NCBI GenBank assembly: GCA_965205025.1
Contig: CBDBFU010000002.1
Location: forward strand, 320,001 to 384,000
DNA from: Candidatus Poribacteria bacterium
GTDB lineage: Bacteria > Poribacteria > WGA-4E > WGA-3G
Direction of reading: 5' to 3'
DNA: 64,000 bases
Below the pieces are notes generated by a model. That model saw nothing but the letters and a program-made list of their open reading frames with translations, was not told the origin of the DNA and made no database searches. Made by a program: the position numbers and the translations under genes. This document shows, piece by piece, positions 24,230-63,300 of this stretch; the first letter of the stretch is position 1; every line of letters begins with the position of its first letter.

Positions 24230-27211
24230 ATGAAACACACCGATGTTGAACTGATCCAATACACCCTTGCTGGTGATGAAACCGCTTTCGCAGAACTTGT
24301 GAAAAGGCATCAAAAGCCTGTTCATACATTGGCTTGGCGTAAAATCGGGGATTTTCAGATCGCTGAAGAAATTACACAGGACACCTTCCTGAAAGTATAT
24401 CAAAGATTGCACACCCTGAAAGACCCAAACCAGTTTTCTGGTTGGCTTTATGTGATTGCGACACGCCGTTGCTACGCTTGGCTCCGCAAAAAACGGATAC
24501 GTACCGATCCGTTGGAGGATGTAGATACCACAATGATACACAAAGATGCTTATTCACACCATGTCATAGAAGACAGGAGAAATTCTGCTATTGATGCGCA
24601 CCGCGAAGCCGTCAAAAAACTCCTCGCAAAGCTGAAAGAGAGTGAACGGACTGTGATGACGCTCCACTATCTCGGTGAAATGACTGTTGAGGAGATAAGC
24701 AAGTTTATTGGGGTGTCCGCGGGGACAATCAAGAGTCGATTGCAACGTGCGCGAAACCGACTCCAAAAGGAGGAAACAATGATTAGAGAAGCACTCGAAC
24801 ATTTCCAAATATCACCAAACCTGACAGATAACATTATGCAAGAGGTACATCGTCTTAAACCTACACCTACCGGGAGTAAACCGCTTATCCCGTGGGCAGT
24901 TGCTGCGTCTACCGCTGTTTTGATTGCATTGATGTTGGGGATAGGAAGTCAACACTTAGCACGTTTCCAGCAACCCTATAATTTGGAAGCACAATCCGAG
25001 ATGTCAGTTGAACTCGTTGAGGCACCTATTGTGCCAATACTTGAGATGGAACCGGATGTACGACGCCAGATTGGAAATACGAATGCTGTTGGTAAGAGTA
25101 ATAGACCGAAACAAAACCCTGATGAGGTATTATTTGCTTCCACACAAGTACAAGGAGAAAATATGTCTAACCAAAAACAACAATGGATTCATGCAAAACG
25201 GGTGAAAGGCGCTCCAGCCATGAACCTGAGCACTACACCTGATGGGGATCTCTATGCTTTCTTAAATTTTCTTTCTGTCTATAGACAATCTAAAGATACA
25301 AATACATGGCAACATCTCTCCAGCATAAACAAACTAAGAACTAATTGGGGAGGCGATCCATCAATAGTGAAGTGGAACAATACTTTGTATTTCAGTATAT
25401 CCAATAATTTTTATTCTTCTACGAATAACGGTGAAACTTGGGATTTACTCTATTCTTGGAAAAACGGAGAAAACGTGTTCCCACTTAACGACTACGAGTT
25501 TCCAATTAAATTCATTATAACAGAGCAAGCTTTTTACCTTGCTTTTAGGAATGGTGTTTTCCAGTCTGATGACAACGGCAAAACATGGAAAAATATTAGC
25601 GTTGGATTGAAGGGAAGATCTGTACATTTTATTAACTCATTTATTAATATCCAGAACACGGTCTTTGTTGGAGCTAACGATGGTTGCTACCGTTACAATG
25701 GTAATGAATGGGAACGCTTGGAATTCCCAAGCAAAGTTTTCAGTGTTGTTTCAACTGCAGCAGATGCGGGGAAACTCTATGTTATGGCGGAGTTGAATTG
25801 GTGGAAAGCCGATCAAGAGTTCAAACGTACTTGGGGAATATTCCGATCAACTGACCTCGGAGATTCATGGGTAGATATTACACCTACACATGCTTGGCAA
25901 TTAGATGGTGATCGTCCAAATTTAGTATTAATTGCTGTAGGTGAAACACTTTTGGCAATGGAGCATGGAATGGTACGTTCGTTGGATAGTGGGGACACAT
26001 GGCTGAGTCCTCAAACACAAGACACATCACCACAAATGGGTAATCTTTCCCCAGTTGCAGTCATGAATGACCAGACTATTTATGTTGGCAGCGGGGACGG
26101 TCTATATTCTTCCACTGATCTCGGTGAATCGTGGCACAAGGCGAACATAAGGCAAAATGGAGGAAGTATATATGATCTTATTGCATTAAAAAAGGCTGAT
26201 AAAGGTCAAACTAACCCTTCGTCGCTCTATGCAATAGTAGAGGGAGAAACAAATTCGTCAAATGACATACAAAAAACAGATGATAGCGGGAATTCTTGGA
26301 AACGCGTCCAAATTGCGAAACCAATGACAGATCCTATCAGAAGGGTAACTCCGGATTTTACCCACATTTTAAAATCAGGGGAAGTTCTTTATGCCAAGGG
26401 AAAGGATGGTATTGGCGATGTTAATAAAGTGTATATACATCGTGTATCCAATGATAGTAAAACGATTGAACGGATTCAAGGGATGCCGACTTTCAGTTCG
26501 GAAGGGTTAGATGATAAGTTTTCTGAAGAAGAAGTTCATGGCGGAACTCAGTTTTTTAAACAGTTGACACAACCGAATTACGAAAAGGGTAGTAAGCCTC
26601 GAAAAAACCTTATAAAGCAAGGGTTACGCGGACCGTTTGCTGTTGATAAAGACACATACTACATTGAATTCAACTTTAAGCTCTTCCGGTGGAAGATGGG
26701 GGATACAGAATTGTATGACACGGAACAGGAAGAAACAATTGAATTGAGTGAGGACACAATAAAGAAAGATCTCAAACTTGCGGTTTCAGGAAACACTGTC
26801 TACGTAGGAAAACGGGATGGACATTTCGTTGTATCGTTTGATAGGGCAACTAATTGGATTGATTTCACACCGGCACTACCATTTGCTGTTAATGACTATA
26901 AACAGATTTTGGTTGCTGGAACTACTGTATATGTAGCAACGGACGCTGGCATGATTACATCTGATGATGGAAGAAGTTGGAATACCATCACCGATGCAGT
27001 AGGAGATAATCTCATAATGGAACACTTAGCAAATGATGGAAATGCATTGTATGGTACTACAGAGAAGTCCGGTATCTATCGCTTAGAAAATGGCAGTTGG
27101 AATCAGATTGTATCTGAAATACCAGACAGTATAACTTCTATGGCTGTTGATGGAAATACCTTATACGTAGGCACACGCAACCAAGGCATGCTTCACTATA
27201 CTTTTGAATAG
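24230..27211 (+). CDS. ECF sigma factor - TM - BNR/Asp-box beta-propeller fusion (#1)
   Basis: sigma2 (AEEITQDTF, FSGWL), sigma4 (GTIKSRLQRAR), TM after KPLIPW, repeated SxDxGxTW motifs. Confidence 0.9.
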   Translation: MKHTDVELIQYTLAGDETAFAELVKRHQKPVHTLAWRKIGDFQIAEEITQDTFLKVYQRLHTLKDPNQFSGWLYVIATRRCYAWLRKKRIRTDPLEDVDTTMIHKDAYSHHVIEDRRNSAIDAHREAVKKLLAKLKESERTVMTLHYLGEMTVEEISKFIGVSAGTIKSRLQRARNRLQKEETMIREALEHFQISPNLTDNIMQEVHRLKPTPTGSKPLIPWAVAASTAVLIALMLGIGSQHLARFQQPYNLEAQSEMSVELVEAPIVPILEMEPDVRRQIGNTNAVGKSNRPKQNPDEVLFASTQVQGENMSNQKQQWIHAKRVKGAPAMNLSTTPDGDLYAFLNFLSVYRQSKDTNTWQHLSSINKLRTNWGGDPSIVKWNNTLYFSISNNFYSSTNNGETWDLLYSWKNGENVFPLNDYEFPIKFIITEQAFYLAFRNGVFQSDDNGKTWKNISVGLKGRSVHFINSFINIQNTVFVGANDGCYRYNGNEWERLEFPSKVFSVVSTAADAGKLYVMAELNWWKADQEFKRTWGIFRSTDLGDSWVDITPTHAWQLDGDRPNLVLIAVGETLLAMEHGMVRSLDSGDTWLSPQTQDTSPQMGNLSPVAVMNDQTIYVGSGDGLYSSTDLGESWHKANIRQNGGSIYDLIALKKADKGQTNPSSLYAIVEGETNSSNDIQKTDDSGNSWKRVQIAKPMTDPIRRVTPDFTHILKSGEVLYAKGKDGIGDVNKVYIHRVSNDSKTIERIQGMPTFSSEGLDDKFSEEEVHGGTQFFKQLTQPNYEKGSKPRKNLIKQGLRGPFAVDKDTYYIEFNFKLFRWKMGDTELYDTEQEETIELSEDTIKKDLKLAVSGNTVYVGKRDGHFVVSFDRATNWIDFTPALPFAVNDYKQILVAGTTVYVATDAGMITSDDGRSWNTITDAVGDNLIMEHLANDGNALYGTTEKSGIYRLENGSWNQIVSEIPDSITSMAVDGNTLYVGTRNQGMLHYTFE

Positions 27212-33821: not shown

Positions 33822-36775
33822 ATGCAAAACAATGATGTTGAAATAATTCGTCGTATTCTTGATGGTAATGATACCGCATTCGCTGAACTTGTGAATAAGT
33901 ATCAAAGAACAGTTCACGCACTGGTATGGCGTAAGATTGAAGATTTTCATATCGCCGAAGAATTAACACAAGACATCTTTTTGAAAGTGTATCAAAAATT
34001 GAATACCTTGAAGAAACCACACTGTTTCACAAGCTGGCTCTATGTGATTGCTTCGCGACGCTGCACTGCTTGGTTGCGTAAAAAGCGTATGTTAACGCAG
34101 CCAATTGAAGATACTACGGATTTAGAACCTGAAAAAAGTAAATACTCAAAGTATGTCACTGAAGAAAACGAACGTACAGCAATAGAAGCACAACGTGAAA
34201 TCGTCCGAAAGTTGCTTGCTAAACTGCCAGAGAGTGAACGAACTGTCATAACATTACGCTACTTCAGTGATATGTCCAGTGCAGAAATTGGTGCGTTTTT
34301 AGGGGTATCCGCAAATACGGTGAGAAGTCGTCTTCGTCGAGCACGGAACCGTTTACAAAAGGAGGAAACAATGATAAGAGAAGCACTCGAACATTTCCAA
34401 ATATCACCAAACCTAACCGATAACATAATGCGAGAAGTTTCACGTCTCAAACCTGCTGCCCCTTCTACCAGCAAACCTATAATCCCGTGGGTGATAGGTG
34501 CTACAAGTGCAGTATTGATTGTGCTAATGCTCGGTATTGGCAACCAGTACTTAGCATATTACCAACAACCTTATAGTATAGAAGCACAAACTGAGATGTC
34601 GGTTGAACTTCTTGACACTCCCATTGTTCCATTAATTGAGACAGAACCGAATGTGCGTCGACAGTTTGGAAATATAAATGCAGTTGGTAAAGACAATAGT
34701 CCAAGACAAAATCCGGATGACGTATTATTGGCTTCTGCACAAGCGGAAGGAGAAGATGTTTCTGTCCCTAAACAGCAGTGGATTCAGTCGGCACCAATGT
34801 CCGGAAGTTCTACACAGGAACTCCTTGCTACATCCGATGGGGATCTCTACTCTTATACAACTGGACATCTCTACAAATTGCCTGCTGACGGGAAAATCTG
34901 GCAACATCTCTTTGAAATTTGGACACTGAATCATACCCAATTAAATAATCCAGTTCTTGCTGAGTGGAACAAAACATTGTACTTTACGCAATCAAGTGAA
35001 CTTTTTGCTTCAATAGATGATGGTAAAACATGGAATTTAGTTTACTCTTGGAAAGAAACACACTCTAATCCGATTGAAATGATTCTAACAGACCACGAAT
35101 TTTTATATCGCTTTTGACAACGGTATTTTCCGTTCTAATGATTACGGTGAAACTTGGAAGCCTATAAGTGGGGTATTTGATGGAAGTATTAATGCCTTAG
35201 TTAAGGTACAAAACACACTTCTTGCAGGAACAGATAACGGACTTTATCGTTTAGATACAGAAGGCTGGAAACGTCTGGAATTTCCAGAACCTATAGAATG
35301 GGTGTATTCAGTCGCTGTAACTGAAAACATGATCTATATTTTGGCATCACTCGAGAGATCTGCACTTAATCCTGCCAAAGTGTCACGTGGACATGAACGA
35401 GGGTGGGTGTTATTTGGGTCAAGCAACCTTGGTAATAGATGGATTGATATAACCCCAATAAATGCATGGGCAGTAAATGGCTTTATTCCTGAAGCCAAAC
35501 TAATTGCAACAGGTGATACCATTTTACTAATGGAAAGAGGCATGGTTCGGTCTGCTGATTCGTGGAATAACGTGGTCACCTCCACAATTATCAGGTACCA
35601 CACCTTTTATGGATAGTTATAGTCCTGCTGCAGTAGTGAACGCTGATACTATTTATGTCGATGGGGGTAGTCTACACCGATCCACCGATTACGGGAAATC
35701 ATGGGAAATAGTGAATATTACACCAGATAATAAAAATGATGGAATATATAATCTCATAGTGTTCGCAGGAGGTGAAAAAGATAATAACACGCGTCCTTTC
35801 CTTTACGGTAAATTCGGAGCAGAAGGCATAAAAACAACCGATAAAGGTAAGTCTTGGAAAGATGTTCCCGTTGAAATTTCGATGTCAAAACCCTTCAGGG
35901 AAAATTCCTTAAGTATAAATCAGATAATCAAATCTGGTGATATACTTTATGCAAGCGTAGACTATCAGTTAAGTGGAGAAAAAGTACGGATCTATAAACT
36001 CTCATCTAATGGCAGCAGGTTTTTACCAATACAAGAGATCCCAATTTTTGACTCAGGTAGGTTAGCGCTTGAATTAGAACGTAATCTCTCTGTTGATCAT
36101 TTGCAAACCCAATTTCTTGGAGCTCCACAGTTCTTCAAACAGCTGGTTATTGGAAATGCACAACAACAAAAAATGCTTATACAACGTGGATTAGAAGGAG
36201 CTTTTGATGTCAGTGACGATACGTTCTACATGGAATATAATTTTAAGCTCTTCAGATGGAAGATGGGTGATACTGAATGGTATGATACCGGTGTTGAAGA
36301 AACTGTTGAATTGTCTGAGAGTAATGCAAAGAAAAAACTAAAACTTGCTGCCTTTGAGAATGCTGTCTACGTCGGGAAACGGAATGGACATCTCATAGTA
36401 TCCTTTGATAGGGGAACTAATTGGATAGATCTAACACCAGCCCTACCTTTTTCCGTTCAAACATTCAATGAAATCGTGTTTGTAGGAACTACTGTGTATG
36501 TAGCAACAAATGCTGGTGTAATAGCATCAAGTGATGGGAAGCAGTGGTCAATTGCCTCCAATTCTGATGACGCAAATCTCATTATGGAACACTTATCTGT
36601 TGATGAAAACACCCTTTATGGGATTAAGGACACAGGTATTTATCGCTTGGAAAACGGTATTTGGAAACAGATCGTCACAGAGATACCTGATAAGGTAACT
36701 TCTCTGGCTGTTGATGGGAAAACCTTATACGTAGGTACAGAAACCCAAGGCATGCTACACTATACTCTTGAATAA
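33822..36775 (+). CDS. ECF sigma - TM - BNR propeller fusion (#2), two +1 frameshifts
   Basis: ORFs 33822-35117, 35302-35616 and 35609-36775 are colinear with #1/#7; extra T at ~35100 and ~35560. Confidence 0.85.
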
Positions 36776-40618: not shown

Positions 40619-43600
40619 ATGAAGAACAACGATGCAAAACTCATCCAACGTGTCCTTGAAGGCGATGATACGGCGTTCTCCACACTCGTGCAAAAATATC
40701 AGAAGTCCATTCACGCATTAGCGTGGCGAAAGATCGGAGATTTCCATATCGCAGAAGATATTACACAAGATACATTACTGAAAGCGTATCAAGAACTCTC
40801 GACGCTAAATGAACCGCAGCGTTTTGCGAGTTGGCTCTATGTGATAGCTTCAAACTACTGTAAGATGTGGCTACGTAAGAGAGGTTTATCAACGGAGTCG
40901 TTGGAAAACATAAGTAGCACCCAATTAGAGAAAACGACCTATTCTGAGTTTGTCATTGAGGAAAAAGAACGGTCAGCAGAAGAAACACAGCGTGAAGTCG
41001 TTAAGAAATTGCTTGCGAAACTGCAGGAGAGTGAGCGCACCGTCATGACACTTTATTACCTCGGAGGAATGACACACGAAGAGATAAGTGAGTTTTTAGG
41101 AGTATCGGTAGCTGCGATTAAGAATCGTTTATACCGAGCACGAAACCGATTAAAGAAGGAGGAAACAATGATAAGAGAAGCACTTGAACATTTTCAAATA
41201 TCACCTAACCTGACTGATAATATTATGAAGGAAATTTCTCGGACAAAACAGATGACACCATCGGGTAGTAAACCGTTTATCCCGTGGATAGTTGGTGTTA
41301 CTGCTGTAACGATAGTGATGCTGATGCTTGGATTTAGCAACCAATTCTTATCACGTTTCCAGAAGCCATATAATTTCAATGCGGCTTCAGATATGAGGGT
41401 TGAATTGATTGATACTCCTATTGTGCAAAACCTTGAATCTGATCCAGATGACCGAACGCAGTTCGAAAATGCAAATGCAAAAGGTGAGAACATTGAAGTT
41501 GGGCAGCAAACCGATAGCATCGCTTCACTTGACTTAGATACAATAATTTCAAAGATAAAACACAACGATAATGCTGTTACCTCCGTAACCGGTGATTTCG
41601 TAAGGGAACGCCATCGAGGGAATAATAAAAAGGGAATTAGAGGAACAGAATTTACATTGACTTTTGAAGGCAAGAAAATCAAAGTAGAAGGACAGGAGGG
41701 ATTCCCTTCTATCTTGTATTGGGATGGTGAACGCACATGGGAGGGGGCAAAGTCCCAAAATCTGATATTTAATTTTGAAATTGCACATGGCAAGGAGAAA
41801 ACTGATCTTGAGATGATTCAACAAGCATTCAAACAACAAGGTATTGAACTCACTGATGATGTTAGCATCGTTGCTGGGGACGAACCGCAGAGTTTCACAC
41901 TTATTGAGAACAAGACAGATAAAACTTACCATTTTTGGTTGGAGGGAGAAACGACGCTGTTTGTTTACGATTATCAACTCGAATATAGTACTCGACCTAT
42001 GTGGATGATTTTTTTCTGACTATGACCCGAGGTATTGGCTTACCTTTGCAATCGTTTCAGGAAACTCCTATTTATCCGAGCCGCTTTGGCATTTGCTTGA
42101 GAAACATGATAGCAAAATTATTGGTAATGAGATATTGAACGGTGAAAAGACATCCGTTATCCGTCTAACTATACCTGTTGTGTCCAATGGAGACATCAAA
42201 AGACCTGATAAGTCCTATAAACTCTGGGATTTCTCATGACAAAGGCTTTCGATTGGTTAAATCAGAAGAAACATTTACTGTTGAAAATCCGACAGAATGG
42301 AGCTCCTTCAAAGCGGGTGTAACTTATATTAGAACCCGAAAAATTGATTATCATGAATACATACCGGGTGTCTGGTTTCCTAAAAGAATTGAGTCGTCTA
42401 CGGCTCAAAAAGCATCATCGGAACAACAGGGTGGAGAAAATGTTATTTACAAAGATGTCCCTTCTCACGAAGCAGTGTCGGGTAAATACCGATGTCACTG
42501 AGTTATTAAGTTTAGGTCTACATCCTGCTACACCTGTAATCGATTACGCGGATGGCCGGCAAAAGACAATAACCGATGTGTTAAATCCAAAGGTTATTGA
42601 TACTTGGATACTTCTCAATAATGCTACTATGTCAGATAGGAAAGATGCCTCTAACCAGCAAATCTATAAACCCGCTTCAATTGACTTAGGTACGATTATC
42701 GCCAAGATGAAGGAATATGATGATGCGATACTCTCAGCAAGTGGAAAATTCGTTATTGAACACCAAAAAGAAACTGGGGCAGCCAACACAGAATATGCCT
42801 TGACGATTGAAGATCAGAAAGTCCGTATCCAACGAGAATGGCTTCCTTCCCCTATAGTAAAAGATACTCCACTCGTAGAACAACTTTTACCAAATGTAGA
42901 GTTATATGATGGGAACCAAAGATGGGACATATATAAGTACAAGAAACTACTCTTAAGCATTGAAATTGTACGGAATAAAGAGCATTCTCTCCTACAAACA
43001 ATTAAACAGACGTTCAAACAACAAGACATTGAAATTGCTGACGATCTACACATCATTGCAGAGAACGCACCAGATAGTTATACGCTTGTTGAAAGCAAGA
43101 CCGGCAAAACCTATTCTGTCATATTGATAGGAGAGACAACATTAAAGATTTATGATCTTAAACATGTGGAATATGCCGTTCGAGATTATATGGAACATCA
43201 GGACCGCCGACTCCATGATCCTGTTCGTCATCAGTGGGGTATGTTTTCAAACCTTGATCCGAGATATTGGCTTACTTATCCAAGCGCTGGTGGAATAACC
43301 TATTTAACTGAACCACTTTGGCAGCTGCTTGAAACACATGAGAGTCAACTCCTTGGTAGCGAAAATCTGAATGGTGAAGAAACATCCGTTATTCGTGTAA
43401 ATACACCTGATCAATCTCTCAAACTGTGGATTTCTCATGAGAAAGGTTTTCGTTTGGTTAAGATGCAAAGAGCATTTCTTATAGAAAATCCGAAAGGTAT
43501 TTTGGAATTAAAATACTTCCAACCGGGAATAACTTATGTTGAAACACGTGAAATTGATTATCAAGAATATTCACCAAATATTTGGTTCCCTAAGAAAATT

Positions 43601-49513: not shown

Positions 49514-52500
49514 ATGAAAAACGACGATGTTGAACTTATCCAGATGTTTCTCGCTGGCGATGAACTCGCTTTCACTGAACTCGTAAAAAAGTATCATAAA
49601 CCAGTTCACGCACTGGCTTGGCGAAAAATTGAGGATTTCCATATCGCTGAGGACATCACTCAGGATACCTTCCTAAAAGTGTATCAGAGACTCCATACCT
49701 TGAAAGATCTCAGTCATTTTTCAGGATGGCTCTATGTCATAACAACAAACTTATGTACCACATGGCTACGCAGAAATCGAAAACAGACTGAACGATTGAA
49801 GGATGCAGAGATAACAATGACACAAAGTGATACTTACTCACAACATGTCAGAGATGATCGTGCTAACAGTGTAACGCAGGAACAACGAGAAGTTGTTAAG
49901 AAACTCCTCGCGAAGCTGAAAGAGAGTGAACGCACTGTGATGACACTCCACTACCTTGGAGAGATGAAGATTGAGGAAATCAGCAAATTCTTAGGAGTAT
50001 CCGTAAGCACAATCAAAACCCGTCTCATGCGTGCAAGACAACGTCTAAAAAAGGAGGAAACAATGATTAGAGAAGCACTCGAACATTTCCAAATATCACC
50101 AAACCTGACCAATAATATTATGCAAGAGGTGATGCGTTTAAAACCTACACCTTCTGGAAACAAACCCGTAATCCCATGGGCAATTACTGCAACAAGTATT
50201 GTTTTAATTGCGTTGATGTTAGGAATCGGCAACCAGTACTTAGCATACTTCCAACAACCTTATAGTTTAGAAGCACAAACTGAGATGGCAGTTGAACTTC
50301 TTGACACTCCCATTGTTCGATTACTTGAGACGGAACCGAATGTGCATCGACAGTTTGGCAATGCGAATGCGGAAGGTAAGAACGACACCCCAAGCCAAAC
50401 CCCTGATGATCTCTTATTGGCTGCTGCAGATATAGAAGGAGAAGACACTCCAACGACTAAACAACAATGGATTCAGGGAAACGCACCTGAATATCAATAT
50501 GGTACATCAGTAAGATCTCTATATCCTACCCCTGAAGGAGATATCTATATTTTTGCAAACGATCGTATAATCGCTAAATTACCAGCAAATGGAACTGAAT
50601 GGGAAGTTGTCAGTGATGTTAGTACACTGCACGATTATAGAAATCGGGATGATGAAATCCCTATCACCACTTTAAACGATACACTCTATATTGTCCTATC
50701 TGATGAACTCTTTTCATCTACAGATAAAGGTAAGACATGGCAGTCAGTCAGCAAATGTCCTCAAGGAAACATACTCGATTTGGTGGTAATAGACAATGTG
50801 TTTTATCTCGCCATGCAACATCAGATATTTCGTTCTACAGACATTGGAAAAACATGGGTAGCAGTGGAAGATGGCTTGCCAGCGGACATACGTGCAGTTA
50901 AGGTTATTCAAAATACGCTTTTTGTTTCCACACCCATTGATTGGGGGCAGGCACTGTATCGGCTTAATGGTGATAGTTGGGAACGCCTGCAGTTTCCAAA
51001 TGCTGAAATCCATAGTGTCCCTTCCTTTGGGGGAACTAAAGACGTTCTCTATGTAATTGCATCATTAAATGTAAGGAAAATTGATGGACGGAAGCAGGGG
51101 TGGTGGATTTTCCGCTCAGCTGACAAAGGAGATTCATGGACAGATGTAACACCCAAATACGCATGGAACATAAATGATGATCCACCTTCTGTAACATTTG
51201 CCTCAGCAGGAAATACAGTTTTGGTAATTGGTGCAAATGATGGTGCTGTCGTTCGTTCAATTGATAGGGGAAATTCATGGACACTGAAGGAAATCACCGG
51301 TATACCTGTAAAGTCTTACGGTATTATCGATACATTTTCACTTGACGAAAACACATTTTATTCACTTGGCAATTCTGGCTTCTTACGTTCTCTTGATGGT
51401 GGTCAATCGTGGAATAGAGTTGAAATTAGCCAAGAAAGTCGAATAGACCAACTCATCTGGATTAAACCTGACAAAAAGCAGAACACATCAGGAGACCTAT
51501 ACTGTAAGATAGTGAATGAGATATTTAAATCCAGTGATGCGGGAAAATCTTGGCAGATAGTTAATCCAAAGATCAATATTAGAGAATATAATATAGACGG
51601 ACCTCCAGTTTTTACTCGAATCAATAGTTCCGGTGATATTCTCTATGCAAAATATGGTGGATATTCGCTATCCAGTCTAAATACAGGTATATACCGTATA
51701 TCGGATGATGGGGACACATTTGTACCCATACAAGGCATGCCTATTTTCGATTCACGAAGATTACAATCTCTGATGTCTGCAGTATTAAATGGTAATTTGG
51801 ATTTATCAGAGAAAACCTTTGAAGAACAATTAAAAGAAGAATTCCTCGGTGCGGATCAGTTCTTTAAGACGTTGGGGAATTGGGATACCGATGAACAAGA
51901 AGGAATTACTGAGAGAAAACTATATTCAGAATATATTGAACTAATAAGTCAAGGGGTACGCGGTATGTTTGCCGTCAGCGGCAACACCTTCTACATGGAA
52001 TACAACTATAAACTCTTTCGATGGAAGCCGGGTGAATCAGAATGGTATGATACCGGTGTAGAAGAGACAGGTGAACTTAACAGAAGAAAATTTGTAAAAT
52101 CATTAGAACTTAAGGGTTTGTCACAGGAAATGATATACGATATCATCAGGGCATCGGCAGATTTTAAACTTGCTGTTTCAGGGAACACCATCTACGTCGG
52201 AAAACGAGATGGACAACTTGTCGCATCGTTTGACGAAGGGAATAATTGGATCGATTTCACGCCGGCTCTACCATTTCCTGTCACCTATTTTAAAGAGATT
52301 CTATTTGCTGGACCTACGGTGTATGTAGCAACAGATGCAGGTGTTGCAGCGACAGAAAATGGCAAAAGTTGGTATCCTCTCTCCGATGCATCAGGAACAC
52401 CTGTCAACATTGATAAACTTGCTGTTGATGGAAACACTCTTTACGGGTATAGCAAAAAAACAGGTATTTATCGCGTGGAAAACGGAAATTGGGTGCAGAT

Positions 52501-52609
52501 TTCCTCAGAGACACTACCTTATGTGAATTCTTTGGCTGTGTATGGGAACACACTATATGTGGGTTCGATGGAACAAGGCATGCATTTATACAAACTTGAA
52601 GATAACTAA
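49514..52609 (+). CDS. ECF sigma - TM - BNR propeller fusion (#6)
   Basis: sigma4 STIKTRLMRAR; SxDxGxTW repeats; paralog of #1/#2/#7. Confidence 0.9.
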   Translation: MKNDDVELIQMFLAGDELAFTELVKKYHKPVHALAWRKIEDFHIAEDITQDTFLKVYQRLHTLKDLSHFSGWLYVITTNLCTTWLRRNRKQTERLKDAEITMTQSDTYSQHVRDDRANSVTQEQREVVKKLLAKLKESERTVMTLHYLGEMKIEEISKFLGVSVSTIKTRLMRARQRLKKEETMIREALEHFQISPNLTNNIMQEVMRLKPTPSGNKPVIPWAITATSIVLIALMLGIGNQYLAYFQQPYSLEAQTEMAVELLDTPIVRLLETEPNVHRQFGNANAEGKNDTPSQTPDDLLLAAADIEGEDTPTTKQQWIQGNAPEYQYGTSVRSLYPTPEGDIYIFANDRIIAKLPANGTEWEVVSDVSTLHDYRNRDDEIPITTLNDTLYIVLSDELFSSTDKGKTWQSVSKCPQGNILDLVVIDNVFYLAMQHQIFRSTDIGKTWVAVEDGLPADIRAVKVIQNTLFVSTPIDWGQALYRLNGDSWERLQFPNAEIHSVPSFGGTKDVLYVIASLNVRKIDGRKQGWWIFRSADKGDSWTDVTPKYAWNINDDPPSVTFASAGNTVLVIGANDGAVVRSIDRGNSWTLKEITGIPVKSYGIIDTFSLDENTFYSLGNSGFLRSLDGGQSWNRVEISQESRIDQLIWIKPDKKQNTSGDLYCKIVNEIFKSSDAGKSWQIVNPKINIREYNIDGPPVFTRINSSGDILYAKYGGYSLSSLNTGIYRISDDGDTFVPIQGMPIFDSRRLQSLMSAVLNGNLDLSEKTFEEQLKEEFLGADQFFKTLGNWDTDEQEGITERKLYSEYIELISQGVRGMFAVSGNTFYMEYNYKLFRWKPGESEWYDTGVEETGELNRRKFVKSLELKGLSQEMIYDIIRASADFKLAVSGNTIYVGKRDGQLVASFDEGNNWIDFTPALPFPVTYFKEILFAGPTVYVATDAGVAATENGKSWYPLSDASGTPVNIDKLAVDGNTLYGYSKKTGIYRVENGNWVQISSETLPYVNSLAVYGNTLYVGSMEQGMHLYKLEDN

Positions 52610-52643
52610 TACCATATATTTCAATTCCTAAAGGAGAATAAAA

Positions 52644-54086: not shown

Positions 54087-57000
54087 ATGAAAACCACTGA
54101 TATTGATCTCATCCACCGCATTCTTGATGGCGATGATACTGCTTTCACAGAACTTGTGGAGAAATACCAAAAACCAGTTCATGCACTTGTGTGGCGTAAG
54201 ATTGGGGATTTCCATATTGCCGAGGAAATTACCCAGGATACATTTCTAAAGGTTTATCAGGAATTGAAGACACTGAAGAAACCACACAGTTTTGCAAGTT
54301 GGCTTTATGTAATTGCTGCAAACAACTGCAGTACGTGGCTACGTAATAAGCGTCAAATGCCAGAGTCGTTTGAGGATACAAACACCACACAATTGGAAAA
54401 ACCAACCTATTCGAGGTATGTCATCTCGGAAAAAGAACGAATAGCAATAGAATCGCAGCGTGAAGTCGTGGAAAAATTGCTTGCAAAACTTCAGGAAAGT
54501 GAACGTACAGTCATCACACTACACTATTTTGGTGAGATGTCAAGTGCGGAAATCGGAGCGTTCTTAGGTGTATCTGCAAATACGGTAAGAAGTCGTCTCC
54601 GACGCGCACAACAACGCCTAAAAAAGGAGGAAACAATGATTAGAGAAGCACTCGAACATTTTCAAATATCACCTAACTTGACTGATAATATCATAAAGAA
54701 AATTTCTCGAACAAAACAGGTCATACCGACATCTGGAAAACCAGTTATCCCATGGGCAATAGGGGCATCAAGTATTGTTTTTATTGTGTTACTATTGGGA
54801 TTCGGAAGCCAATACTTAGCACGTTTTCAGATACCCTATAGCCTGGATGCACAGACTGAAATGACGGTTGAACTTGTTGACGCTCCCGTTGTGCTAAATC
54901 TTGAGACGAGGTCAGATGCACGTCGTCAGTTTGGAAATCCAAATGCACTTGGTACAAGTGAAAATAACGGTCAGAAACCAGATGAGGTTTTATTAGCTGC
55001 TGCAGAGCCAGAAGGAGAAACCGTTTCTGTTCCCAAACAGCAGTGGATTCAGTCTGAAGCCATCAAAGGAAGTCGTGCTACAAGTTTGCACGCGACACCT
55101 GAAGGAGATCTCTACGTTTATGATTTTGATTTTCATAATAATATCTATAAATTACCTGCTAATGGAACAATGTGGCAATCTATCTCAGAAAATATCCGTT
55201 TGGATACTGTTTGGAGCATATCTCCAGCTATTACAAAATGGAATGATACACTCTATTTTATGCCAACGAACAAACTCTTTGCTTCAAAAGATGAAGGTAA
55301 AACCTGGAATTTACTTCATTCGTGGCAAGAGGGACATGGAGCAATCGAATTTGTACAAATGGAACAGGTTCTTTACGTTGCGTTTGAAAATGGAATCTTT
55401 AAATCAGAAGATGCTGGCAAGTCTTGGAATGCAATACACGATGAGAAAATCGAGTATATTGATTCACTGATCAATATCCAAAACACTTTATTTGTCCAAG
55501 CTTATAATAAACTCTACCGTTTGGAGGATGATAAATGGCAACTTCTTGAATTTCCAGTACCCGTCAGGAGGATTTTGTCAGTTGCAGTTTCTGAAGATAA
55601 GCTTTATGTTGCGGTATTCTTCAATTGGGAGGAAGCGAATGTAGATAGAGAAAAAATGGAACAGGGACTGGTACGTGGTTGGTGGATATACCGTTCAACG
55701 GACCTTGGCAACTCATGGCAAGATATAACACCGACAAACGCTTGGAACATAAAAGGATGGCCTCCCTATCCCAAAATGATTGCTACTGGTGAAACACTAC
55801 TCGTAATGGAACGGGGTATGGTGCGTTCTACCGATGGCGGGGCCACATGGATGCCACCACAACCACCGGACACCTCTCCGTTTATGCGGGATGATAATAA
55901 TGCTGTAGCATTAAATGAAAACACCTTTTATGTCAGTAGCGATGACGGTCTCTATCGTTCCACTGATGGCGGCAGTTCGTGGGAAATGGTAAAAGTTCCT
56001 CTGGATAAGACGAGGAGGATATTTTACAACCTAATCACTTCAGAAGGGAGCAAAAAAGGACAGAACAAACAAAATACTCTCTATGGGATAGTTGAAGTTT
56101 GGAAAATAACAAAAACTACTGACAATGGCAAGACTTGGAAGGACGTTAAAGTTGATCTGCCTATGACAAAACAACTTACAGAACCCATACCACATTTTAT
56201 CCAAATTGTTCCTTCCGGAAATGCAGTCTATGCCAAAGGTGGATCTGTTGGCGGAGGGAAAATGCGCCACTACAAAGTATCTAAAGATGGATATACATTG
56301 GTACCTATTCAAGACATGCCTGCCTTCAACTCGATTGAATTAAGAATGCATCTACATCAAGTACAAGACCTTTCTATTGAAGCGCTACAAGACAGTTTTT
56401 CAGGGGCGACTCAATTCTTCAAACAGATGCTCCAGCTACCTCCACAACTTCGGACAAAACTTGAAGAACTTGGATTACTTGGGCCTTTTGCAGTCAGTGG
56501 TGATACATTCTATTCGGAATATAACTTTAAGCTCTTCAGATGGGAACCCAGTAATACTGAATGGTACGACACTGGACAGGAAGAAACTACTGAATTGTCC
56601 TTGGACATATTTAAACCCCACTTCATCATTCCCAAACTTGCAGTATTAGGCGACACTGTCTACTACGGAAAGCGGGACGGCAGCCTTGTCGTATCGTTTG
56701 ATAGGGGAGACAATTGGATTGACCTCACACCGGGACTACCGTTTAAGGTGAAAACTTTCAAAGGGATCGTATTTGCTGGTACTACAGTGTACGTAGCGAC
56801 GAACGCAGGCATCATTACATCAGATGATGGAAAAGCTTGGAAAGTCGTCACTGACTCTGATGGAACCAATGTTATCATGGAGCATTTGGCAGCCGACGGT
56901 ACAACGCTATATGGCATCACCAAGAAAACAGCAGTATATCGTTTGGAAAGTGATAGTGACACTTGGAAACTACTTGATTCAGAGATACCTGCCATCCTAT

Positions 57001-57104
57001 ATTACGAGGGAGGGGATATCGTAACTTCTCTCGCTGCAGCTGATAACACGCTATACATAGGTAGTGAAAGAAGCGGTATGCTTCATTTCACTATTGAAAA
57101 ATAA
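54087..57104 (+). CDS. ECF sigma - TM - BNR propeller fusion (#7)
   Basis: sigma4 SANTVRSRLRRA; SxDxGxTW repeats. Confidence 0.9.
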   Translation: MKTTDIDLIHRILDGDDTAFTELVEKYQKPVHALVWRKIGDFHIAEEITQDTFLKVYQELKTLKKPHSFASWLYVIAANNCSTWLRNKRQMPESFEDTNTTQLEKPTYSRYVISEKERIAIESQREVVEKLLAKLQESERTVITLHYFGEMSSAEIGAFLGVSANTVRSRLRRAQQRLKKEETMIREALEHFQISPNLTDNIIKKISRTKQVIPTSGKPVIPWAIGASSIVFIVLLLGFGSQYLARFQIPYSLDAQTEMTVELVDAPVVLNLETRSDARRQFGNPNALGTSENNGQKPDEVLLAAAEPEGETVSVPKQQWIQSEAIKGSRATSLHATPEGDLYVYDFDFHNNIYKLPANGTMWQSISENIRLDTVWSISPAITKWNDTLYFMPTNKLFASKDEGKTWNLLHSWQEGHGAIEFVQMEQVLYVAFENGIFKSEDAGKSWNAIHDEKIEYIDSLINIQNTLFVQAYNKLYRLEDDKWQLLEFPVPVRRILSVAVSEDKLYVAVFFNWEEANVDREKMEQGLVRGWWIYRSTDLGNSWQDITPTNAWNIKGWPPYPKMIATGETLLVMERGMVRSTDGGATWMPPQPPDTSPFMRDDNNAVALNENTFYVSSDDGLYRSTDGGSSWEMVKVPLDKTRRIFYNLITSEGSKKGQNKQNTLYGIVEVWKITKTTDNGKTWKDVKVDLPMTKQLTEPIPHFIQIVPSGNAVYAKGGSVGGGKMRHYKVSKDGYTLVPIQDMPAFNSIELRMHLHQVQDLSIEALQDSFSGATQFFKQMLQLPPQLRTKLEELGLLGPFAVSGDTFYSEYNFKLFRWEPSNTEWYDTGQEETTELSLDIFKPHFIIPKLAVLGDTVYYGKRDGSLVVSFDRGDNWIDLTPGLPFKVKTFKGIVFAGTTVYVATNAGIITSDDGKAWKVVTDSDGTNVIMEHLAADGTTLYGITKKTAVYRLESDSDTWKLLDSEIPAILYYEGGDIVTSLAAADNTLYIGSERSGMLHFTIEK

Positions 57105-57232: not shown

Positions 57233-57358
57233 TCTTTATCCTTCTCTCTTTCCTTCCAAATTCTCATAATGCAGAATTATGCAACCGTTTTACAGCTAAT
57301 TTGCGTCATAATAGTCTGATATGTATTTGATCAAACTATCGCCTAATGGAGATACCTT

Positions 57359-60097
57359 GTGAAAAACGACGATGTTGCGCTTATCAGAAAGATACTCAAC
57401 GGTGATGAAATCGCATTTGCAAAACTCGTGAAAAAATATCAAAAGGCAGTACATACGCTTGCTTGGCGAAAAATTGGAGACTTCCACATTGCAGAGGACA
57501 TCACCCAAGATGTCTTTCTAAAAGTGTATCAGAGACTCCACAGCCTGAAAGATCCAAATCAATTTTCTGGGTGGCTCTATGTAGTTACAACAAACCTTTG
57601 TAACACATGGTTCCGCAAAAATCGGATTCAAACCCAGCCGATGGAAAACGTTGAGACAACCAAGATAGAAAAAGACGCATATTCACGACATATCGCAGAA
57701 GAGCGAGTTAAGACCACTATTGAGGCACAACGTGAAGTAGTCAAGAAACTCCTCGCGAAGTTGAAAGAGAGTGAACGCACAGTCATGACGCTCCATTACC
57801 TCGGTGAGATGTCAGTCGAAGACATCAGCAAGTTCATAGGGGTATCTTCTGGAACGATAAAGAGCCGACTTCAACGAGCGCGCAACCGTCTTAAGAAGGA
57901 GGAAACAATGATCAGAGAAGCACTCGAACATTTCCAAATATCCCCTACCCTGACTGATAATATTATGAAGGAAATTTCTCGAACAAAACAAGTTACACCA
58001 ACATCTGGAAAACCAATTATCCCTTGGGCAATAGGGGCATCAAGTGTTATTTTTATTGTGTTACTATTGGGATTCGGAAGCCAATATTTAGGATTATTCC
58101 AGAAACCTTATAGTTTGGTAGCACAAACCGAAACCACAGTGGAACTTGTTGATGCACAAGTAATCCAAAATCTTGATGCAAATCCAAGTGTGCTAAATCA
58201 ACTCAATCAACAGAATTCGGATAGAGATGGCAGAGAAAATGCTGATGATGAGAAATCAAATCAAACATCAGGTGATATAGGAGACTATACCCGATGGAAT
58301 TTACCGGAAGGTGCTAAAACCCGAATCGGAAAAGGCAGAATCTATGACATTGCGTATTCGCCGGATGGCACGCGTCTGGCTGTAGCAAGTTCGATCGGGG
58401 TATGGCTCTATGATGCAAACAGTGGAAAAGAACTTAACCTGTTAACAGAGCATACGGACAAGGTCTTGAGCATAGCATTCAATCTTAATGGAAACATACT
58501 GGCAAGTGGAAGTGATGATGGCAGCATAGACTTGTGGGATACACGCACCAGTAAACATCTTCGGACAATGACAGAGGATACGTCCTTGATCACGAACGTG
58601 GTCTTTAGTGGGGATGGCAAAATGTTGGCAAGTGCAAATAAGGATAACACTATTCGACTGTGGGATACACAGTCAGGCAAAATCCGAAAGACTCTTAAGG
58701 GGCATGCAGATAAGATCTTCAGTATATGGCTCAGTTGGGATGCCAAAATGTTGGAAAGTGCGAGTAAGGATAACACTATTCAACTGTGGGATACACAGTC
58801 AGGCAAAATCCGAAAAACCCTCAACCTTGAGCATTCACAGGAAATTGACAGAATGGCGTTCAGCGCGGATGGCAAAACATTGGCGAGTTGGTGTATTGAA
58901 AGCCCAATTTATCTATGGAATGCACAAACAGGTGAGGTTCGCCATACTCTCCCGTTAGAACAAATGGATATTGTCAATGAATTTGCATTCAGTCCAGATG
59001 GAAAAACGATCGCAAGTGCTATGCACAGCGGCACCGTCCATCTGTGGAATGTACAGACAGGTGAACACCTTCGAAGCCTCATAGGGCATACGCACTGGGC
59101 ATTGAACGTGGTGTTCAGTCCTGATAGCAAAACACTCGCAAGTGGGAGTTTCGATAATACTATCCGTTTTTGGGAGGTCCAGACGGGAAAAACACAAAAA
59201 ACGCTCACAGGACATTTGAGCGATACCGTGCATGTAGCGTTTAGTCCAGATGGAAAAACACTTGCAAATGCAATGGAAGATGATACCATCCGTTTATGGA
59301 ATGCACAGACAGGAGAAGTTCGCCAAATTCTCAAAAGGCAAAATATGCCTTCAATCGCGGGTGTAGCGTTCAGTCCAGATGGAAAAACACTTGTAGGTGG
59401 CACAGATGGAAGTGATTCTTACGCCATTCGTCTGTGGGATATACAAACAGGCAAAATTCACAAAACTTTCGGTGGACATACGGATTATGTTACGAGCGTG
59501 GCATTCAGTCCAGATGGTACTTTGTTAGTAAGTGGAAGTTGGGATAAGACCATCCAGCTGTATCATGCGCAGACAGGAGAACTCCTCAAAACTTTCTCAG
59601 GACATACGGATTGGGTTATGAGTGTGGCGTTCAGTCCAGATAGAAAAATGATAGCAAGTGGGAGTAAGGATAACACCGTCCGTATATGGGATGTGCAAAC
59701 AAGTGAAGTCCTTAAAACCCTAACAGGACATGCGGGTGTAGTCTTTAGCGTGGCGTTCGCCCCCAACGGCAAAACACTCGCAAGTGGGAGTCATGATGGT
59801 CTCATCCATCTGTGGGATGTGCAAACAGGTGAAATCCTTGAAACCACAGAACATACAGATTGGGTTATGAGCGTGGCATTCAGTCCAGATAGCCGAACGC
59901 TCGCAAGTGGAAGCAAGGATAGCACCATTCAACTGTGGGATACACAGACAAATATAACCCAACAAATTCCCATGGGTCATACGAGCTGGGTTACAAGCGT
60001 GGCATTCAGTTCAGATGGCAGGACGCTCGCAAGTGGAAGTAAAGACGGCACTATCCTGTTGTGGGAACATAAACCTAAGACAATCCAGCAAAAGTAA
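57359..60097 (+). CDS. ECF sigma - TM - WD40 fusion (#8)
   Basis: GTG start; sigma4 GTIKSRLQRAR; highly regular GH...VAFSPDG..LASGS.D.TI.LWD repeats. Confidence 0.9.
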   Translation: MKNDDVALIRKILNGDEIAFAKLVKKYQKAVHTLAWRKIGDFHIAEDITQDVFLKVYQRLHSLKDPNQFSGWLYVVTTNLCNTWFRKNRIQTQPMENVETTKIEKDAYSRHIAEERVKTTIEAQREVVKKLLAKLKESERTVMTLHYLGEMSVEDISKFIGVSSGTIKSRLQRARNRLKKEETMIREALEHFQISPTLTDNIMKEISRTKQVTPTSGKPIIPWAIGASSVIFIVLLLGFGSQYLGLFQKPYSLVAQTETTVELVDAQVIQNLDANPSVLNQLNQQNSDRDGRENADDEKSNQTSGDIGDYTRWNLPEGAKTRIGKGRIYDIAYSPDGTRLAVASSIGVWLYDANSGKELNLLTEHTDKVLSIAFNLNGNILASGSDDGSIDLWDTRTSKHLRTMTEDTSLITNVVFSGDGKMLASANKDNTIRLWDTQSGKIRKTLKGHADKIFSIWLSWDAKMLESASKDNTIQLWDTQSGKIRKTLNLEHSQEIDRMAFSADGKTLASWCIESPIYLWNAQTGEVRHTLPLEQMDIVNEFAFSPDGKTIASAMHSGTVHLWNVQTGEHLRSLIGHTHWALNVVFSPDSKTLASGSFDNTIRFWEVQTGKTQKTLTGHLSDTVHVAFSPDGKTLANAMEDDTIRLWNAQTGEVRQILKRQNMPSIAGVAFSPDGKTLVGGTDGSDSYAIRLWDIQTGKIHKTFGGHTDYVTSVAFSPDGTLLVSGSWDKTIQLYHAQTGELLKTFSGHTDWVMSVAFSPDRKMIASGSKDNTVRIWDVQTSEVLKTLTGHAGVVFSVAFAPNGKTLASGSHDGLIHLWDVQTGEILETTEHTDWVMSVAFSPDSRTLASGSKDSTIQLWDTQTNITQQIPMGHTSWVTSVAFSSDGRTLASGSKDGTILLWEHKPKTIQQK

Positions 60098-60389: not shown

Positions 60390-63300
60390 ATGAATAACAA
60401 CGATGATGTTCTCATTCAACGTGTCCTTGATGGCGATGATACGGCATTCTCCGATCTCGTCCGAAAATATCAAAGGTCCGTTCACGCATTGGCGTGGCGA
60501 AAGATAGGAGATTTCCATATCGCCGAAGATATTACACAAGATACGTTCCTGAAAGCATATCAAAAACTCTCAACACTAAAGGAACCTCAACGTTTCTTAA
60601 GTTGGCTCTATGTCATAGCAACAAACCGTTGTAAAGCATGGCTGCGTAAGAAAAATCTGTGGACACAACCGTTTGACAAAGTAAGTAGTTCAGAATCTGA
60701 GAAAGCAACATATTCTGGACATATCATAGAAGAAAACAAGAAAATGGCTATGGAGACACAACGAGAGGTTGTTCAAAAACTACTTGAAAAGTTACAAGAG
60801 AGTGACCGGACAGTCATCACACTCTACTACCTTGGGGGAATGACATACGAGGAAATAAGCGAGTTTTTAGGTGTATCAATAGGAGCAATTAAAAGCCGAC
60901 TTCACCGAGCAAGACAACGTCTTAAGAAGGAAGAAACGATGATTAGAGAAGCACTCGAACATTTCCAAATATCACCTACCCTGACTGATAATATTATGCA
61001 AGAAATTTCTCGGACGAAACAGGTCGCACCAACAACTGGAAAACCACTTATCCCGTGGATAGTTGGTGTGACTGCAGTAACAATAGTGCTGCTGATGCTC
61101 GGTTTTAGCAACCAATTCTTGTCACGTTTCCAGAAGCCTTACAACTTCAATGCGGCTTCAGAGATGAAGGTTGAATTAATTGATACTCCGATTGTACAAA
61201 ACCTTGAATCTGATCCAGATGACCGAACGCAGTTAGGAAATGTTAATGCACAAGGAAAAAACAACGGATCCGATCAGCAAATCAATAATGCCGCTCCGGT
61301 TGATTTGGAGACAATTATTACAAAGATGAAACACTTTGAGAATTTCGTTGCATCTGTAACCGGTGATTTCGTCAGGGAAATGCATATAGATGGTGATTTC
61401 GTCAGGGAAATGCCTATAGAAGGAAGGCATATAGAAACAGACAAGAAAGATGAATATAGCTTGACGTTTGAGGGTGAGAAAGTCAGGGTTGAATGGAAAA
61501 AACGGAGTGCTATGAATTTACCACTCGTTGAGTATTGGGATGGAAAACAACAGTGGGGGGTAAACAGACCTGACAATTTTCTTTTTAAGGTCGAGATTAC
61601 CCCTAACAAGAAAAATACTGTCCTTGAGAAAATTCAACAAGCGTTCAAACAGGTAGGGATTAAAATAACCGGTGATGTCCATATCGTCCCTGGTGATTTA
61701 GCCAATAGTTATAAAGTCAGTGAAAGAGATAAAACATACTTTGTCTTATTCATAGGAGACACAACCCTGAAGGTTTATGGTAGCGATGTTAGATATACAG
61801 TTCGACCTAACTGGATGAATGCCGATCGTGATCCACGGCTATGGCTTACCTTCTCATATTCTGACACTCACGATTCCTATCTATCTGAACCGCTTTGGCA
61901 TTTACTTGAGAAATTTGATAGTGAAATTATAGGAAGCGAAGTACTAAACGGAGAATTAACCTCCGTTATTCGTCTTAGTATACCTAATCGGCCCACTGCA
62001 AAACTCTGGATTTCTCACAACATTGGTTTCCGCATGGTTAAATCAGAAGAGAAAATGTTTGCTGCGGAAGACCCGAAAGCGGGGGCAACTTTTATTATAA
62101 CTCGAGAAATTGATTACCACGAATATTTACCGAACGTCTGGTTTCCCAAGAGAATTGAGAGAACTATTGCTCTAGTGAAATTACCGAATCCACAGCAGCA
62201 AGGGGCGAATATGATATCTAAAACCATTCTTCGCACGAAGCAATGTAAGGTAAATACCGATGTAAGTAGATTACTCCGTTTAAACCTATCTACAGATACA
62301 CGTGTTTTCGATTACAAGGTTAATCACAAGCACACGATCGACGATCTTGAAGTCAAACCAAATTTCCAGATGCAGCTTGCTAATTCCAATTTAGCAAACA
62401 ATAACAGGGCAACCGAACAACATATATCTGATTCTACCTCCCCAAAGACGTTGAAATGGAACCTGCCTGAAGGTGCTAAAGCGCGTATCGGTAAAGGATG
62501 GATAGATAAAATTGAGTATTCCCCAGATGGTAGGCTTCTGGCGGTTGTGAGTTCTATAGGGATATGGCTTTATGATGCACACACTGGACAAGAGCTTGAT
62601 TTGCTCATGGCTCATACCGAACGAGTTCAGTCAATGGCATTCAGTCCAGATGGAAAAACCCTCGTTAGCGGTAACTCAGATAGCACTATTCACCTATGGG
62701 ACACACAAACCCATACACTACGAAAAACCTTCAAGGGACATACGAAGCCGGTGTTAAGCGTGGTTTTCAGTTCTGATGGAACTTCACTGGCAAGCGGGAG
62801 TAAAGATAACACCATCTGTCTGTGGGATGTGCAAACCGGTAAACTCCAAAAAACGCTGAAAGGACATACGAATGCTGTCTTAAGTGTGATGTTTGATCCC
62901 AAGGGGGAAACTTTGGCAAGCGGAGGTAAGGATAACACCTTCCGACTATGGGATGTAGAAACAGGAACTCTCAAGGAAACGAATCTCGTTGAGAGTGCGG
63001 AGATAAGGAGAATGCGGTTCAGTCCCGATGGAAAGACACTTGCTGCTTGGGATTGGGGAACTATCCATCTGTGGGACGTAGGGACTGGTGTAATTGACAA
63101 AACACTCAATAGACACGAAAGGGGCGTTGTCTATGACATAGCGTTCAATCCAGATGGAAAAACATTCGCAAGTGCAATGGGCAACGGTACCGTTAGTCTA
63201 TGGCATACACAAACAGGGGAACAGCACAGAATCCTCATGGGACATAAGGACTTTGTATTGAGCGTAGCATTCAGTCCAGACGGAAAAACACTCACAAGTG

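Follow-up and report, generated by a model that had tools for sequence, protein, structure and literature searches.

A probable internal translation start at the sigma/sensor joint of fused extracytoplasmic function sigma factors in Poribacteria

The 64,000-nucleotide (nt) stretch analysed here (the window; G000:C2:320001–384000, where G000 labels the window's own genome and other G numbers the genomes of relatives) belongs to a metagenome-assembled genome (MAG) of Candidatus Poribacteria of 5.66 Mb, 33 contigs and 38.5% GC. Poribacteria are uncultivated sponge symbionts. From position 24230 to its end, the window carries nine paralogous genes on the + strand in which an extracytoplasmic function (ECF) sigma factor is joined in frame to a membrane sensor, and the joint, or hinge, holds a Shine–Dalgarno (SD)-like heptamer 5 nt before an in-frame start codon. 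Comparison of 226 homologous hinges shows, at the level of nucleotide sequence, that this SD and its start codon are jointly selected. The hinge site is probably a selected internal translation start, by which one gene would give two products, the full-length protein and a sensor without the sigma part.

The genes follow one order of parts, namely ECF sigma regions 2 and 4, the hinge, two short helices, one transmembrane (TM) helix, a linker and a propeller, the last being WD40 or BNR/sortilin-like depending on the copy, and the aligned starts of the nine window genes are ATG in eight cases and GTG in one. A first-pass annotation, made from the letters of the window, had reported AAGGAGG-AAACA-ATG right after sigma4 in seven of the nine copies and AAGGAAG-N5-ATG in the other two (ATG at 37776 and 60939), always in frame at codon 184. 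We found all nine sites where it had placed them, each hinge ATG falling at codon 184 when numbering begins at the aligned gene start. Its description of the nine as fusion genes needs qualifying for two copies that are truncated or broken (33822–35117 and 40619–42019). The genes and their hinge sites, in window coordinates, are as follows.

24230..27211, + strand: fused ECF sigma–TM–BNR/sortilin-like propeller gene, 993 amino acids (aa), short form 810 aa; Pfam Sigma70_r2, Sigma70_r4_2, Sigma70_ECF, Sortilin-Vps10 and DUF6242; open reading frame (ORF), codon count
24767..24781, + strand: hinge site AAGGAGG-AAACA-ATG, codon 184; pairing energy (dG) −12.2 vs −10.6 at the 5′ ribosome-binding site (RBS) of the same gene
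33822..35117, + strand: truncated copy, 431 aa; the C-terminal remnant of the propeller is a separate 388-aa ORF at 35609–36775
34359..34373, + strand: hinge site AAGGAGG-AAACA-ATG; motif search, codon count
37227..40142, + strand: fused ECF sigma–TM–WD40 gene, 971 aa if read from the aligned ATG; WD40 and beta-propeller matches in Pfam
37764..37778, + strand: weaker hinge site AAGGAAG-AACCA-ATG (ATG 37776); dG −6.6
40619..42019, + strand: truncated copy, 466 aa, followed by an ORF at 42344–44065 (573 aa, without a Pfam hit) and then, at 44270–45457, an IS630-type (DDE_3) transposase
41156..41170, + strand: hinge site AAGGAGG-AAACA-ATG; motif search, codon count
46080..49007, + strand: fused ECF sigma–TM–WD40 gene, 975 aa; ORF, codon count
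46617..46631, + strand: hinge site AAGGAGG-AAACA-ATG; motif search, codon count
49514..52609, + strand: fused ECF sigma–TM–BNR-like propeller gene, 1031 aa, short form 848 aa; ORF, codon count
50051..50065, + strand: hinge site AAGGAGG-AAACA-ATG; motif search, codon count
54087..57104, + strand: fused ECF sigma–TM–BNR-like propeller gene, 1005 aa; ORF, codon count
54624..54638, + strand: hinge site AAGGAGG-AAACA-ATG; motif search, codon count
57359..60097, + strand: fused ECF sigma–TM–WD40 gene, 912 aa, GTG start; ORF, codon count, NCBIfam
57896..57910, + strand: hinge site AAGGAGG-AAACA-ATG; motif search, codon count
60390..64000, + strand: fused ECF sigma–TM–extra domain–WD40 gene that passes the window end, its frame closing at C2:384244; ORF, Pfam
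60927..60941, + strand: weaker hinge site AAGGAAG-AAACG-ATG (ATG 60939); motif search, codon count

Within the window, AAGGAGGNNNNNATG occurs seven times, each time as AAGGAGGAAACAATG, against 0.08 occurrences expected from shuffles and with none of 100 shuffles reaching seven, and AAGGAAGNNNNNATG occurs twice; two further copies on contig C1 bring the close copies in the genome to 11. The lysine codon at −4 is AAG in 9/9 window and 11/11 genome copies and the glutamate codon at −3 is GAG in 7/9 and 9/11, counts that uphold the first-pass observation of a codon choice running against the AAA/GAA preference of this DNA (genome-wide, AAA 0.71 and GAA 0.76). Just 6.9% of the 4741 Lys-Glu dipeptides in the long ORFs of the genome are spelled AAGGAG. 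The 3′ tail of the 16S rRNA is GGATCACCTCCTTTCTA (CCTCCTTTCTA) and carries CCUCC, and AAGGAGG is therefore its perfect 7-base complement. SD pairing is in use across the genome, with dG ≤ −6 at 40% of first ATGs (3165 long ORFs) vs 8.6% of 18975 internal in-frame ATGs; dG ≤ −11 is reached at only 68 of these 18975 internal ATGs, 14 of which are hinges of the fused sigma-sensor family. Pairing of the hinge SD to the 16S tail (dG −12.2 to −15.8) is stronger than that of the gene's own 5′ RBS (−5.6 to −10.8) in 9/11 genome copies, and the two are about equal in the two AAGGAAG copies (−6.6 vs −7.1). The hinge thus presents an SD complementary to the organism's own anti-SD, 5 nt before an in-frame start codon. 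Directly before the SD, and in frame, the heptamer A_AAA_AAG stands at 46612–46618, 50046–50052 and 54619–54625, with the −1 frame stopping 6 codons on; as a dnaX-like −1 frameshift signal, by which the protein would terminate shortly past sigma4, it was rejected, being present in 3/9 window copies but just 12/226 homologs, and it is probably a chance occurrence.

The strongest evidence comes from the joint behaviour of the SD and the start codon across homologs. The 226 unique hinge regions were drawn from the window's genome, 20-kb stretches of relatives and 56 named Poribacteria MAG loci, and residue 184 is Met, Val, Ile, Leu or Phe in these sequences, rarely any other. A non-start codon of the Ile/Val/Leu/Phe type occupies the position in 61/226, many with intact long ORFs, and the protein therefore needs no methionine at 184. 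GGAGG lies at −18 to −5 in 115 of the 165 hinges with ATG or GTG vs none of the 61 without. The 49 fused paralogs of G000, which form an unbiased subset of this sample, divide into 17 with both start and GGAGG, 11 with the start only, none with GGAGG only and 21 with neither. Where residue 184 is valine, GGAGG accompanies the codon GTG in 4/8 cases and GTC or GTA in 0/6.

Shared ancestry was taken into account by counting independent pairs on quick trees built without the hinge columns. With FastTree, 19 independent pairs comprised 8.0 in which the SD moved with the start codon, 0.0 in which it moved against it and 11.0 in which it stayed as it was (median p 0.008), and a quick IQ-TREE run with 16 pairs gave 8.2, 0.0 and 7.8 (median p 0.008). 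As a control, eleven third positions nearby were put through this test and returned p values of 0.18–1, while the two SD third positions taken singly scored 7.3 to 1.5 and 4.9 to 0.7. In the closest sister pairs, a change from ATG to ATA or GTC is joined with AAG to AAA or GAG to GAA, the K-E-E residues being retained.

Codon choice tells the same story at finer grain. Where K-E precedes ATG or GTG (n = 115), lysine is AAG in 107, glutamate is GAG in 105 and both hold in 98, in genes whose remaining sequence uses AAG and GAG at 0.29 each; where it precedes a non-start codon (n = 18), the figures are 3, 10 and 1. The codon comparison in distant homologs that the first-pass annotation had proposed as a check thus came out in favour of its reading, with homologs that keep the methionine retaining AAG GAG and those that have lost it using ordinary codons (mostly AAA; GAA or GAG). 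Among the 113 homologs with both KEE and a start, third-position entropy inside the SD core is 0.37 (−10), 0.43 (−7) and 0.07 bits (−4), compared with 0.95 (−13), 1.53 (−1) and 1.47 bits (+5) outside it. In distant homologs from other families of the order, where the residues differ (KKEMIPM, KEELIKM), GGAG still lies 9–11 nt before the ATG. These data indicate that silent changes in the SD and the start codon are constrained more tightly than the protein sequence requires, and by co-occurrence, codon choice, entropy and independent pairs the heptamer and the in-frame ATG act as one selected unit. A separate observation concerns the second glutamate (the −2 codon, e.g. window 50057–50059), which is GAA in 112/113 of the start-bearing KEE homologs, above the genomic bias of 0.76; GAA at this position may keep the spacer A-rich or fix the register of the SD.

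The hinge might instead be a neutral relic of an old anti-sigma RBS and start, or the product of gene conversion among paralogs, in which case it would have no selected function and any initiation there would be noise. Distant unfused ECF operons hold the anti-sigma SD in the last sigma codons, so that a fusion would inherit one, tandem arrays of paralogs favour conversion, the 11 closest copies have a common conserved stretch of ~48 nt, and the 61/226 homologs that have lost the start nevertheless stay long ORFs. We regard this explanation as unlikely. The ~48-nt stretch is a dip in synonymous diversity over codons 179–194 which, in the 113 wider homologs, shrinks to the SD core; silent sites beside the core are there near saturation (H 0.95–1.53) and the three inside it are near-fixed against codon bias, and freely varying silent sites beside seven constrained bases are not what a converted tract should look like. 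In addition, the independent pairs lose the SD only where the start is lost (8 to 0), none of the 61 start-less hinges keeps GGAGG, neighbouring control sites do not track the start codon, and a neutral relic in a genome of 38.5% GC should have decayed in the start-bearing copies too.

Sensor genes that lack the sigma part and start exactly at the hinge codon occur naturally, at G000 C2:282232–284802 and its G004 ortholog, at G000 C16:75591–77885 and in G037. The gene at C2:282232–284802 encodes 856 aa (MIREALHNLKIS...); stop codons lie 24 nt before it and the intergenic region ahead holds a TTGACG-N18-TATAAT-like promoter, an arrangement shared by its G004 ortholog (828 aa). The dN/dS ratio between the two is 0.35, with 0.33–0.37 for the fused ortholog in G022, values which indicate that the sigma-less gene and its G004 ortholog are under purifying selection. 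By dS, G004 is closer to the fused G022 gene (0.18) than to G000 (0.27), and the deletion history is therefore not simple. The gene at C16:75591–77885 encodes 764 aa from a GTG start that follows in-frame stops. In G037, ~490 nt have been deleted out of frame, so that the hinge now follows directly on the first 11–12 sigma codons; the resulting 825-aa ORF can be entered only at CAGGAGG-N5-ATG, and a 33-codon upstream ORF overlaps the hinge ATG.

Two further explanations fare worse than the relic. An SD-like heptamer could act as an elongation pause at the end of the sigma part, aiding sigma folding or signal recognition particle targeting of the TM helix ~40 codons on, with the methionine incidental. 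SD-like ribosome pausing has been proposed in the literature, and the motif lies exactly at the domain boundary, upstream of the TM helix. We nevertheless consider a pause improbable, as it needs no ATG or GTG 5 nt on, yet GGAGG without one was found in 0/61 hinges; GGAGG goes with valine GTG (4/8) and not with GTC or GTA (0/6), and the 5-nt spacing and A-rich spacer (GAA in 112/113 at −2) fit initiation. Least probable of all is another nucleotide element at the hinge (such as a promoter inside the gene, or a structure or binding site in the RNA), with a separate transcript giving the sigma-less sensor. The hinge GGAAAC-N18-CGAAC is, by eye, faintly like an ECF −35/−10 pair and the stand-alone C2:282232 gene has a promoter of its own (TTGACG-N18-TATAAT-like), but conservation in the wide set is found only at the SD core and start while the bases of the would-be −10 vary, the family promoters (TGCAACC-N16-GCGTCA) are unmatched by the hinge, and even an internal transcript would use the same SD and ATG as its start.

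The protein on either side of the hinge was characterised by domain searches and structure prediction, for most of which the copy at 49514..52609 served as query. Pfam matches within residues 7–182 are Sigma70_r2, Sigma70_r4_2, Sigma70_r4 and Sigma70_ECF, with no other sigma matches; regions 2 and 4 are present and regions 3 and 1.1 absent, which places the genes among the ECF (group 4) members of the sigma-70 family. The NCBIfam model TIGR02937 (sigma70-ECF) gives 98.3 bits where 42.9 is the cut-off, and the SigW-type equivalogs remain under theirs. Across the joint the protein reads ...RLKKEET-MIREALEHFQISPNLTDNIM..., followed by a hydrophobic helix, the linker and the propeller. An AF2 model of residues 1–243 of the same copy (101-sequence alignment, mean pLDDT 84) predicts a compact sigma2 and sigma4, helices at 182–190 and 198–209 with pLDDT ≥ 90, and a TM helix at 224–237 over a hydrophobic stretch. 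Superposed over the whole sigma by Foldseek, it fits best on sigmas bound to an anti-sigma, namely 4cxf_A, the CnrH of CnrH-CnrY (TMt 0.69, root-mean-square deviation (rmsd) 5.7 Å), and SigW of SigW-RsiW (TMt 0.63–0.64; 5wuq_A 0.64), while superpositions on ECF sigmas bound to RNA polymerase are poor (rmsd ~27–28 Å). In CnrY, too, a TM helix comes after a short anti-sigma head in the cytosol. The model fits a short inhibitory clamp after the hinge; a complex prediction of sigma 1–183 with residues 184–224 scored 0.02, evidence for neither side.

The layout is that of an IutY-type hybrid, with 49/49 G000 paralogs reading through the joint, a predicted TM helix at 224–237 and a propeller downstream, and the genome encodes an M50 (RseP-like) site-2 protease at G000:C7:217266–218873, an enzyme of the kind needed for regulated proteolysis. 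Upstream of the genes, our own regular expression TGNRAHH-N14-19-SCGTCW, run without a shuffle control, matches within 160 nt of 13/49 paralogs. The typical form of this conserved ECF-type promoter-like motif is TGCAACC-N16-GCGTCA, ~35–60 nt before the 5′ starts (e.g. window ~24140–24185 and 57270–57310), which suggests autoregulation or cross-regulation among the paralogs.

Taken together, the internal-start reading would work as follows. Each gene would encode a membrane-tethered ECF sigma factor, made up of sigma2–sigma4 (1–183), the helices at 182–190 and 198–209, a TM helix at ~224–237, a linker and a putatively extracytoplasmic propeller sensor. In roughly every second paralog, and in each of the nine window copies, the last sigma4 codons K-E-E (AAG GAG GAA, or a near match) would double as an SD 5 nt before an in-frame ATG or GTG, and ribosomes would start at the hinge as well as at the 5′ start. 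A single ORF would then yield the full sigma-sensor and an N-terminally truncated, sigma-less TM sensor beginning MIREALEHF.... The full-length protein would be activated by regulated intramembrane proteolysis, by analogy with relatives such as IutY, and would probably be autoregulated from the TGCAACC-N16-GCGTCA promoters. We think it likely, from the comparative evidence, that the short protein is made in vivo. What it does is a more tentative matter. Its 40-residue cytoplasmic head may possibly bind released sigma in the manner of a short CnrY-type anti-sigma factor, with the ratio of the two RBSs setting the sigma:anti-sigma stoichiometry; it might just as well be a decoy for site-1/site-2 proteases or a partner in oligomers. 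With doubt of a similar order, the whole expanded family could be bicistronic in one frame, the stronger hinge RBS giving an excess of sigma-less sensor as anti-sigma or decoy, so that the sigma:anti-sigma ratio, and with it the threshold of each of ~50 parallel channels, would be set and would evolve by silent changes in three codons, and could be switched off in individual paralogs by a single ATG to ATA change.

As a whole, the interpretation offered by the first-pass annotation is partly supported. Its proposal that each fusion gene encodes two products was too wide, since 28/49 G000 paralogs have a hinge ATG or GTG and 17/49 also GGAGG, although all nine window copies carry the site. Its account of origin, by fusion of an ancestral sigma/anti-sigma pair, found no backing: each of the 49 G000 paralogs is fused, with no stand-alone sigma among them, and no close relative in unfused form came to light. 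An anti-sigma SD inside the sigma 3′ end was seen only in distant ECF operons of other phyla.

A number of observations weigh against the internal-start reading. As many as 50/165 start-bearing homologs lack GGAGG, 35 of them lacking even GGAG, and 61/226 homologs (27%) have no start codon at all; with the SD or start missing in so many homologs, the feature is dispensable and not universal. The trees behind the pair counts are quick ones, the 226 hinges are a sample that leans towards the window's clade, the first 21 genomes by themselves holding at least 580 matches, and the genomes from other families are ~50% GC, which makes GGAG there less surprising. The mRNA around the hinge folds just a little less strongly than other parts of the gene (z +0.97, n = 40), and hinges without a start are also weakly folded (z +0.65, n = 40), so that accessibility does not discriminate between them. 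No anti-sigma family, including the zinc-finger type, was matched in Pfam at E ≤ 5 by residues 184–349 of two copies or by the stand-alone gene. The G037 junction occurs in G037 only, and the G039 ortholog, with 93% identical DNA, remains fused; we had considered the G037 allele as a natural experiment and set it aside as too recent to show maintenance. Finally, according to Saito et al. (PMC7043885), start sites in E. coli are not determined by the strength of the SD by itself. On the other side, it is established that bacteria obtain protein isoforms from internal in-frame starts (Meydan et al., bioRxiv 10.1101/520783).

The family is large and widespread. The 49 fused paralogs in G000 often form tandem arrays, including C2:260000–283000, C9:58000–70000, C16:63000–83000 and others on C28, C26 and C1, and 49/49 read from sigma4 into a tail of at least 150 aa. 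Family matches were present in every genome searched, with 5–55 in each of 12 genomes of the same genus and 1–25 in each of 8 genomes from three other families of the same order. The sensor is modular, as past the conserved TM helix and linker (…FQKPYSL…VEL.D.P.V…) it continues as WD40, as BNR/sortilin-like (DUF6242) or as an extra, unassigned ~400-aa domain followed by WD40 (examples at window 60375–64000 and 40589–44065), which suggests domain shuffling at a fixed joint. Outside Poribacteria, a 540-aa planctomycete ORF in a Phycisphaerae MAG record (DASRZG010000273.1) reads from sigma4 through ...RLKERMLD-MVEQVFDRNRLP..., with AAGGAAAGG 5′ of the ATG, and the fused design with a methionine at the joint may extend beyond Poribacteria.

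Fused sigma/anti-sigma proteins are now treated as single products freed by proteolysis. If one ORF also gives a free membrane partner, a second species has to enter the models of their stoichiometry, feedback and threshold, silent sites in sigma region 4 can hold regulatory information, and annotation pipelines miss a whole protein class. With ~50 WD40/BNR propeller channels per genome, this family may be a main route by which Poribacteria sense the host milieu.

Both components of this arrangement are already known separately, namely fused sigma/anti-sigma proteins (IutY, ECF48/52/53 and ECF57 with WD40) and in-frame internal starts. Our literature search yielded no paper describing internal initiation where a sigma factor joins its sensor and, combining Poribacteria with sigma-factor terms, none of relevance to the fused family; one apparent match to internal translation and anti-sigma (PMC9546586) concerns an mCherry doublet and is unrelated. 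A close parallel is IutY of Pseudomonas putida, an ECF243 sigma/anti-sigma hybrid that likewise combines in one polypeptide a cytosolic ECF sigma, a single TM helix and an extracytoplasmic sensing domain, and which is activated via proteolysis by Prc and RseP (PMC5411451; review PMC8999054). The ECF groups probably differ, however, and the periplasmic domain of IutY is described as an anti-sigma factor domain in cell-surface signalling (PMC5411451), whereas the Poribacteria propeller is WD40/BNR-like; IutY is also a single gene, unlike the family of ~49 paralogs described here, and has no internal start described, the word 'translation' being absent from the main text of PMC5411451. Long C-terminal regulatory extensions are shared with ECF57 of Planctomycetes, which has WD40-like repeats, and with ECF48/52/53 of Actinobacteria, in which a fused zinc-binding anti-sigma domain (ZAS) and TM helices act as a fused anti-sigma factor, while regulation by protein interaction has been proposed for ECF57 (PMC8999054). 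The part of that review dealing with these groups reports no internal start, and no zinc-finger anti-sigma motif was found in the Poribacteria copies searched.

In its predicted fold, with a compact sigma followed by helices and then a TM helix, the AF2 model of the Poribacteria gene resembles CnrH-CnrY (a class II short anti-sigma) and SigW-RsiW, although the Poribacteria head has no sequence homology to any anti-sigma family. The internal starts mapped by Ribo-RET in E. coli are alike in that an SD and in-frame start inside an ORF give a shorter second protein with its own function (bioRxiv 10.1101/520783); the Poribacteria site differs in lying at the sigma/sensor joint, in recurring within a family of 49 fused G000 paralogs with homologs in every relative searched, and in being known from comparative evidence only. 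Classical ECF operons, such as the Opitutia and Lacunisphaera loci (e.g. ...CTAGGAGAAGACTTCAAATAATG), also place the anti-sigma SD in the last sigma codons and its start a few bases on, and the Poribacteria genes differ from them in having no stop codon between the two parts, the upstream frame reading through.

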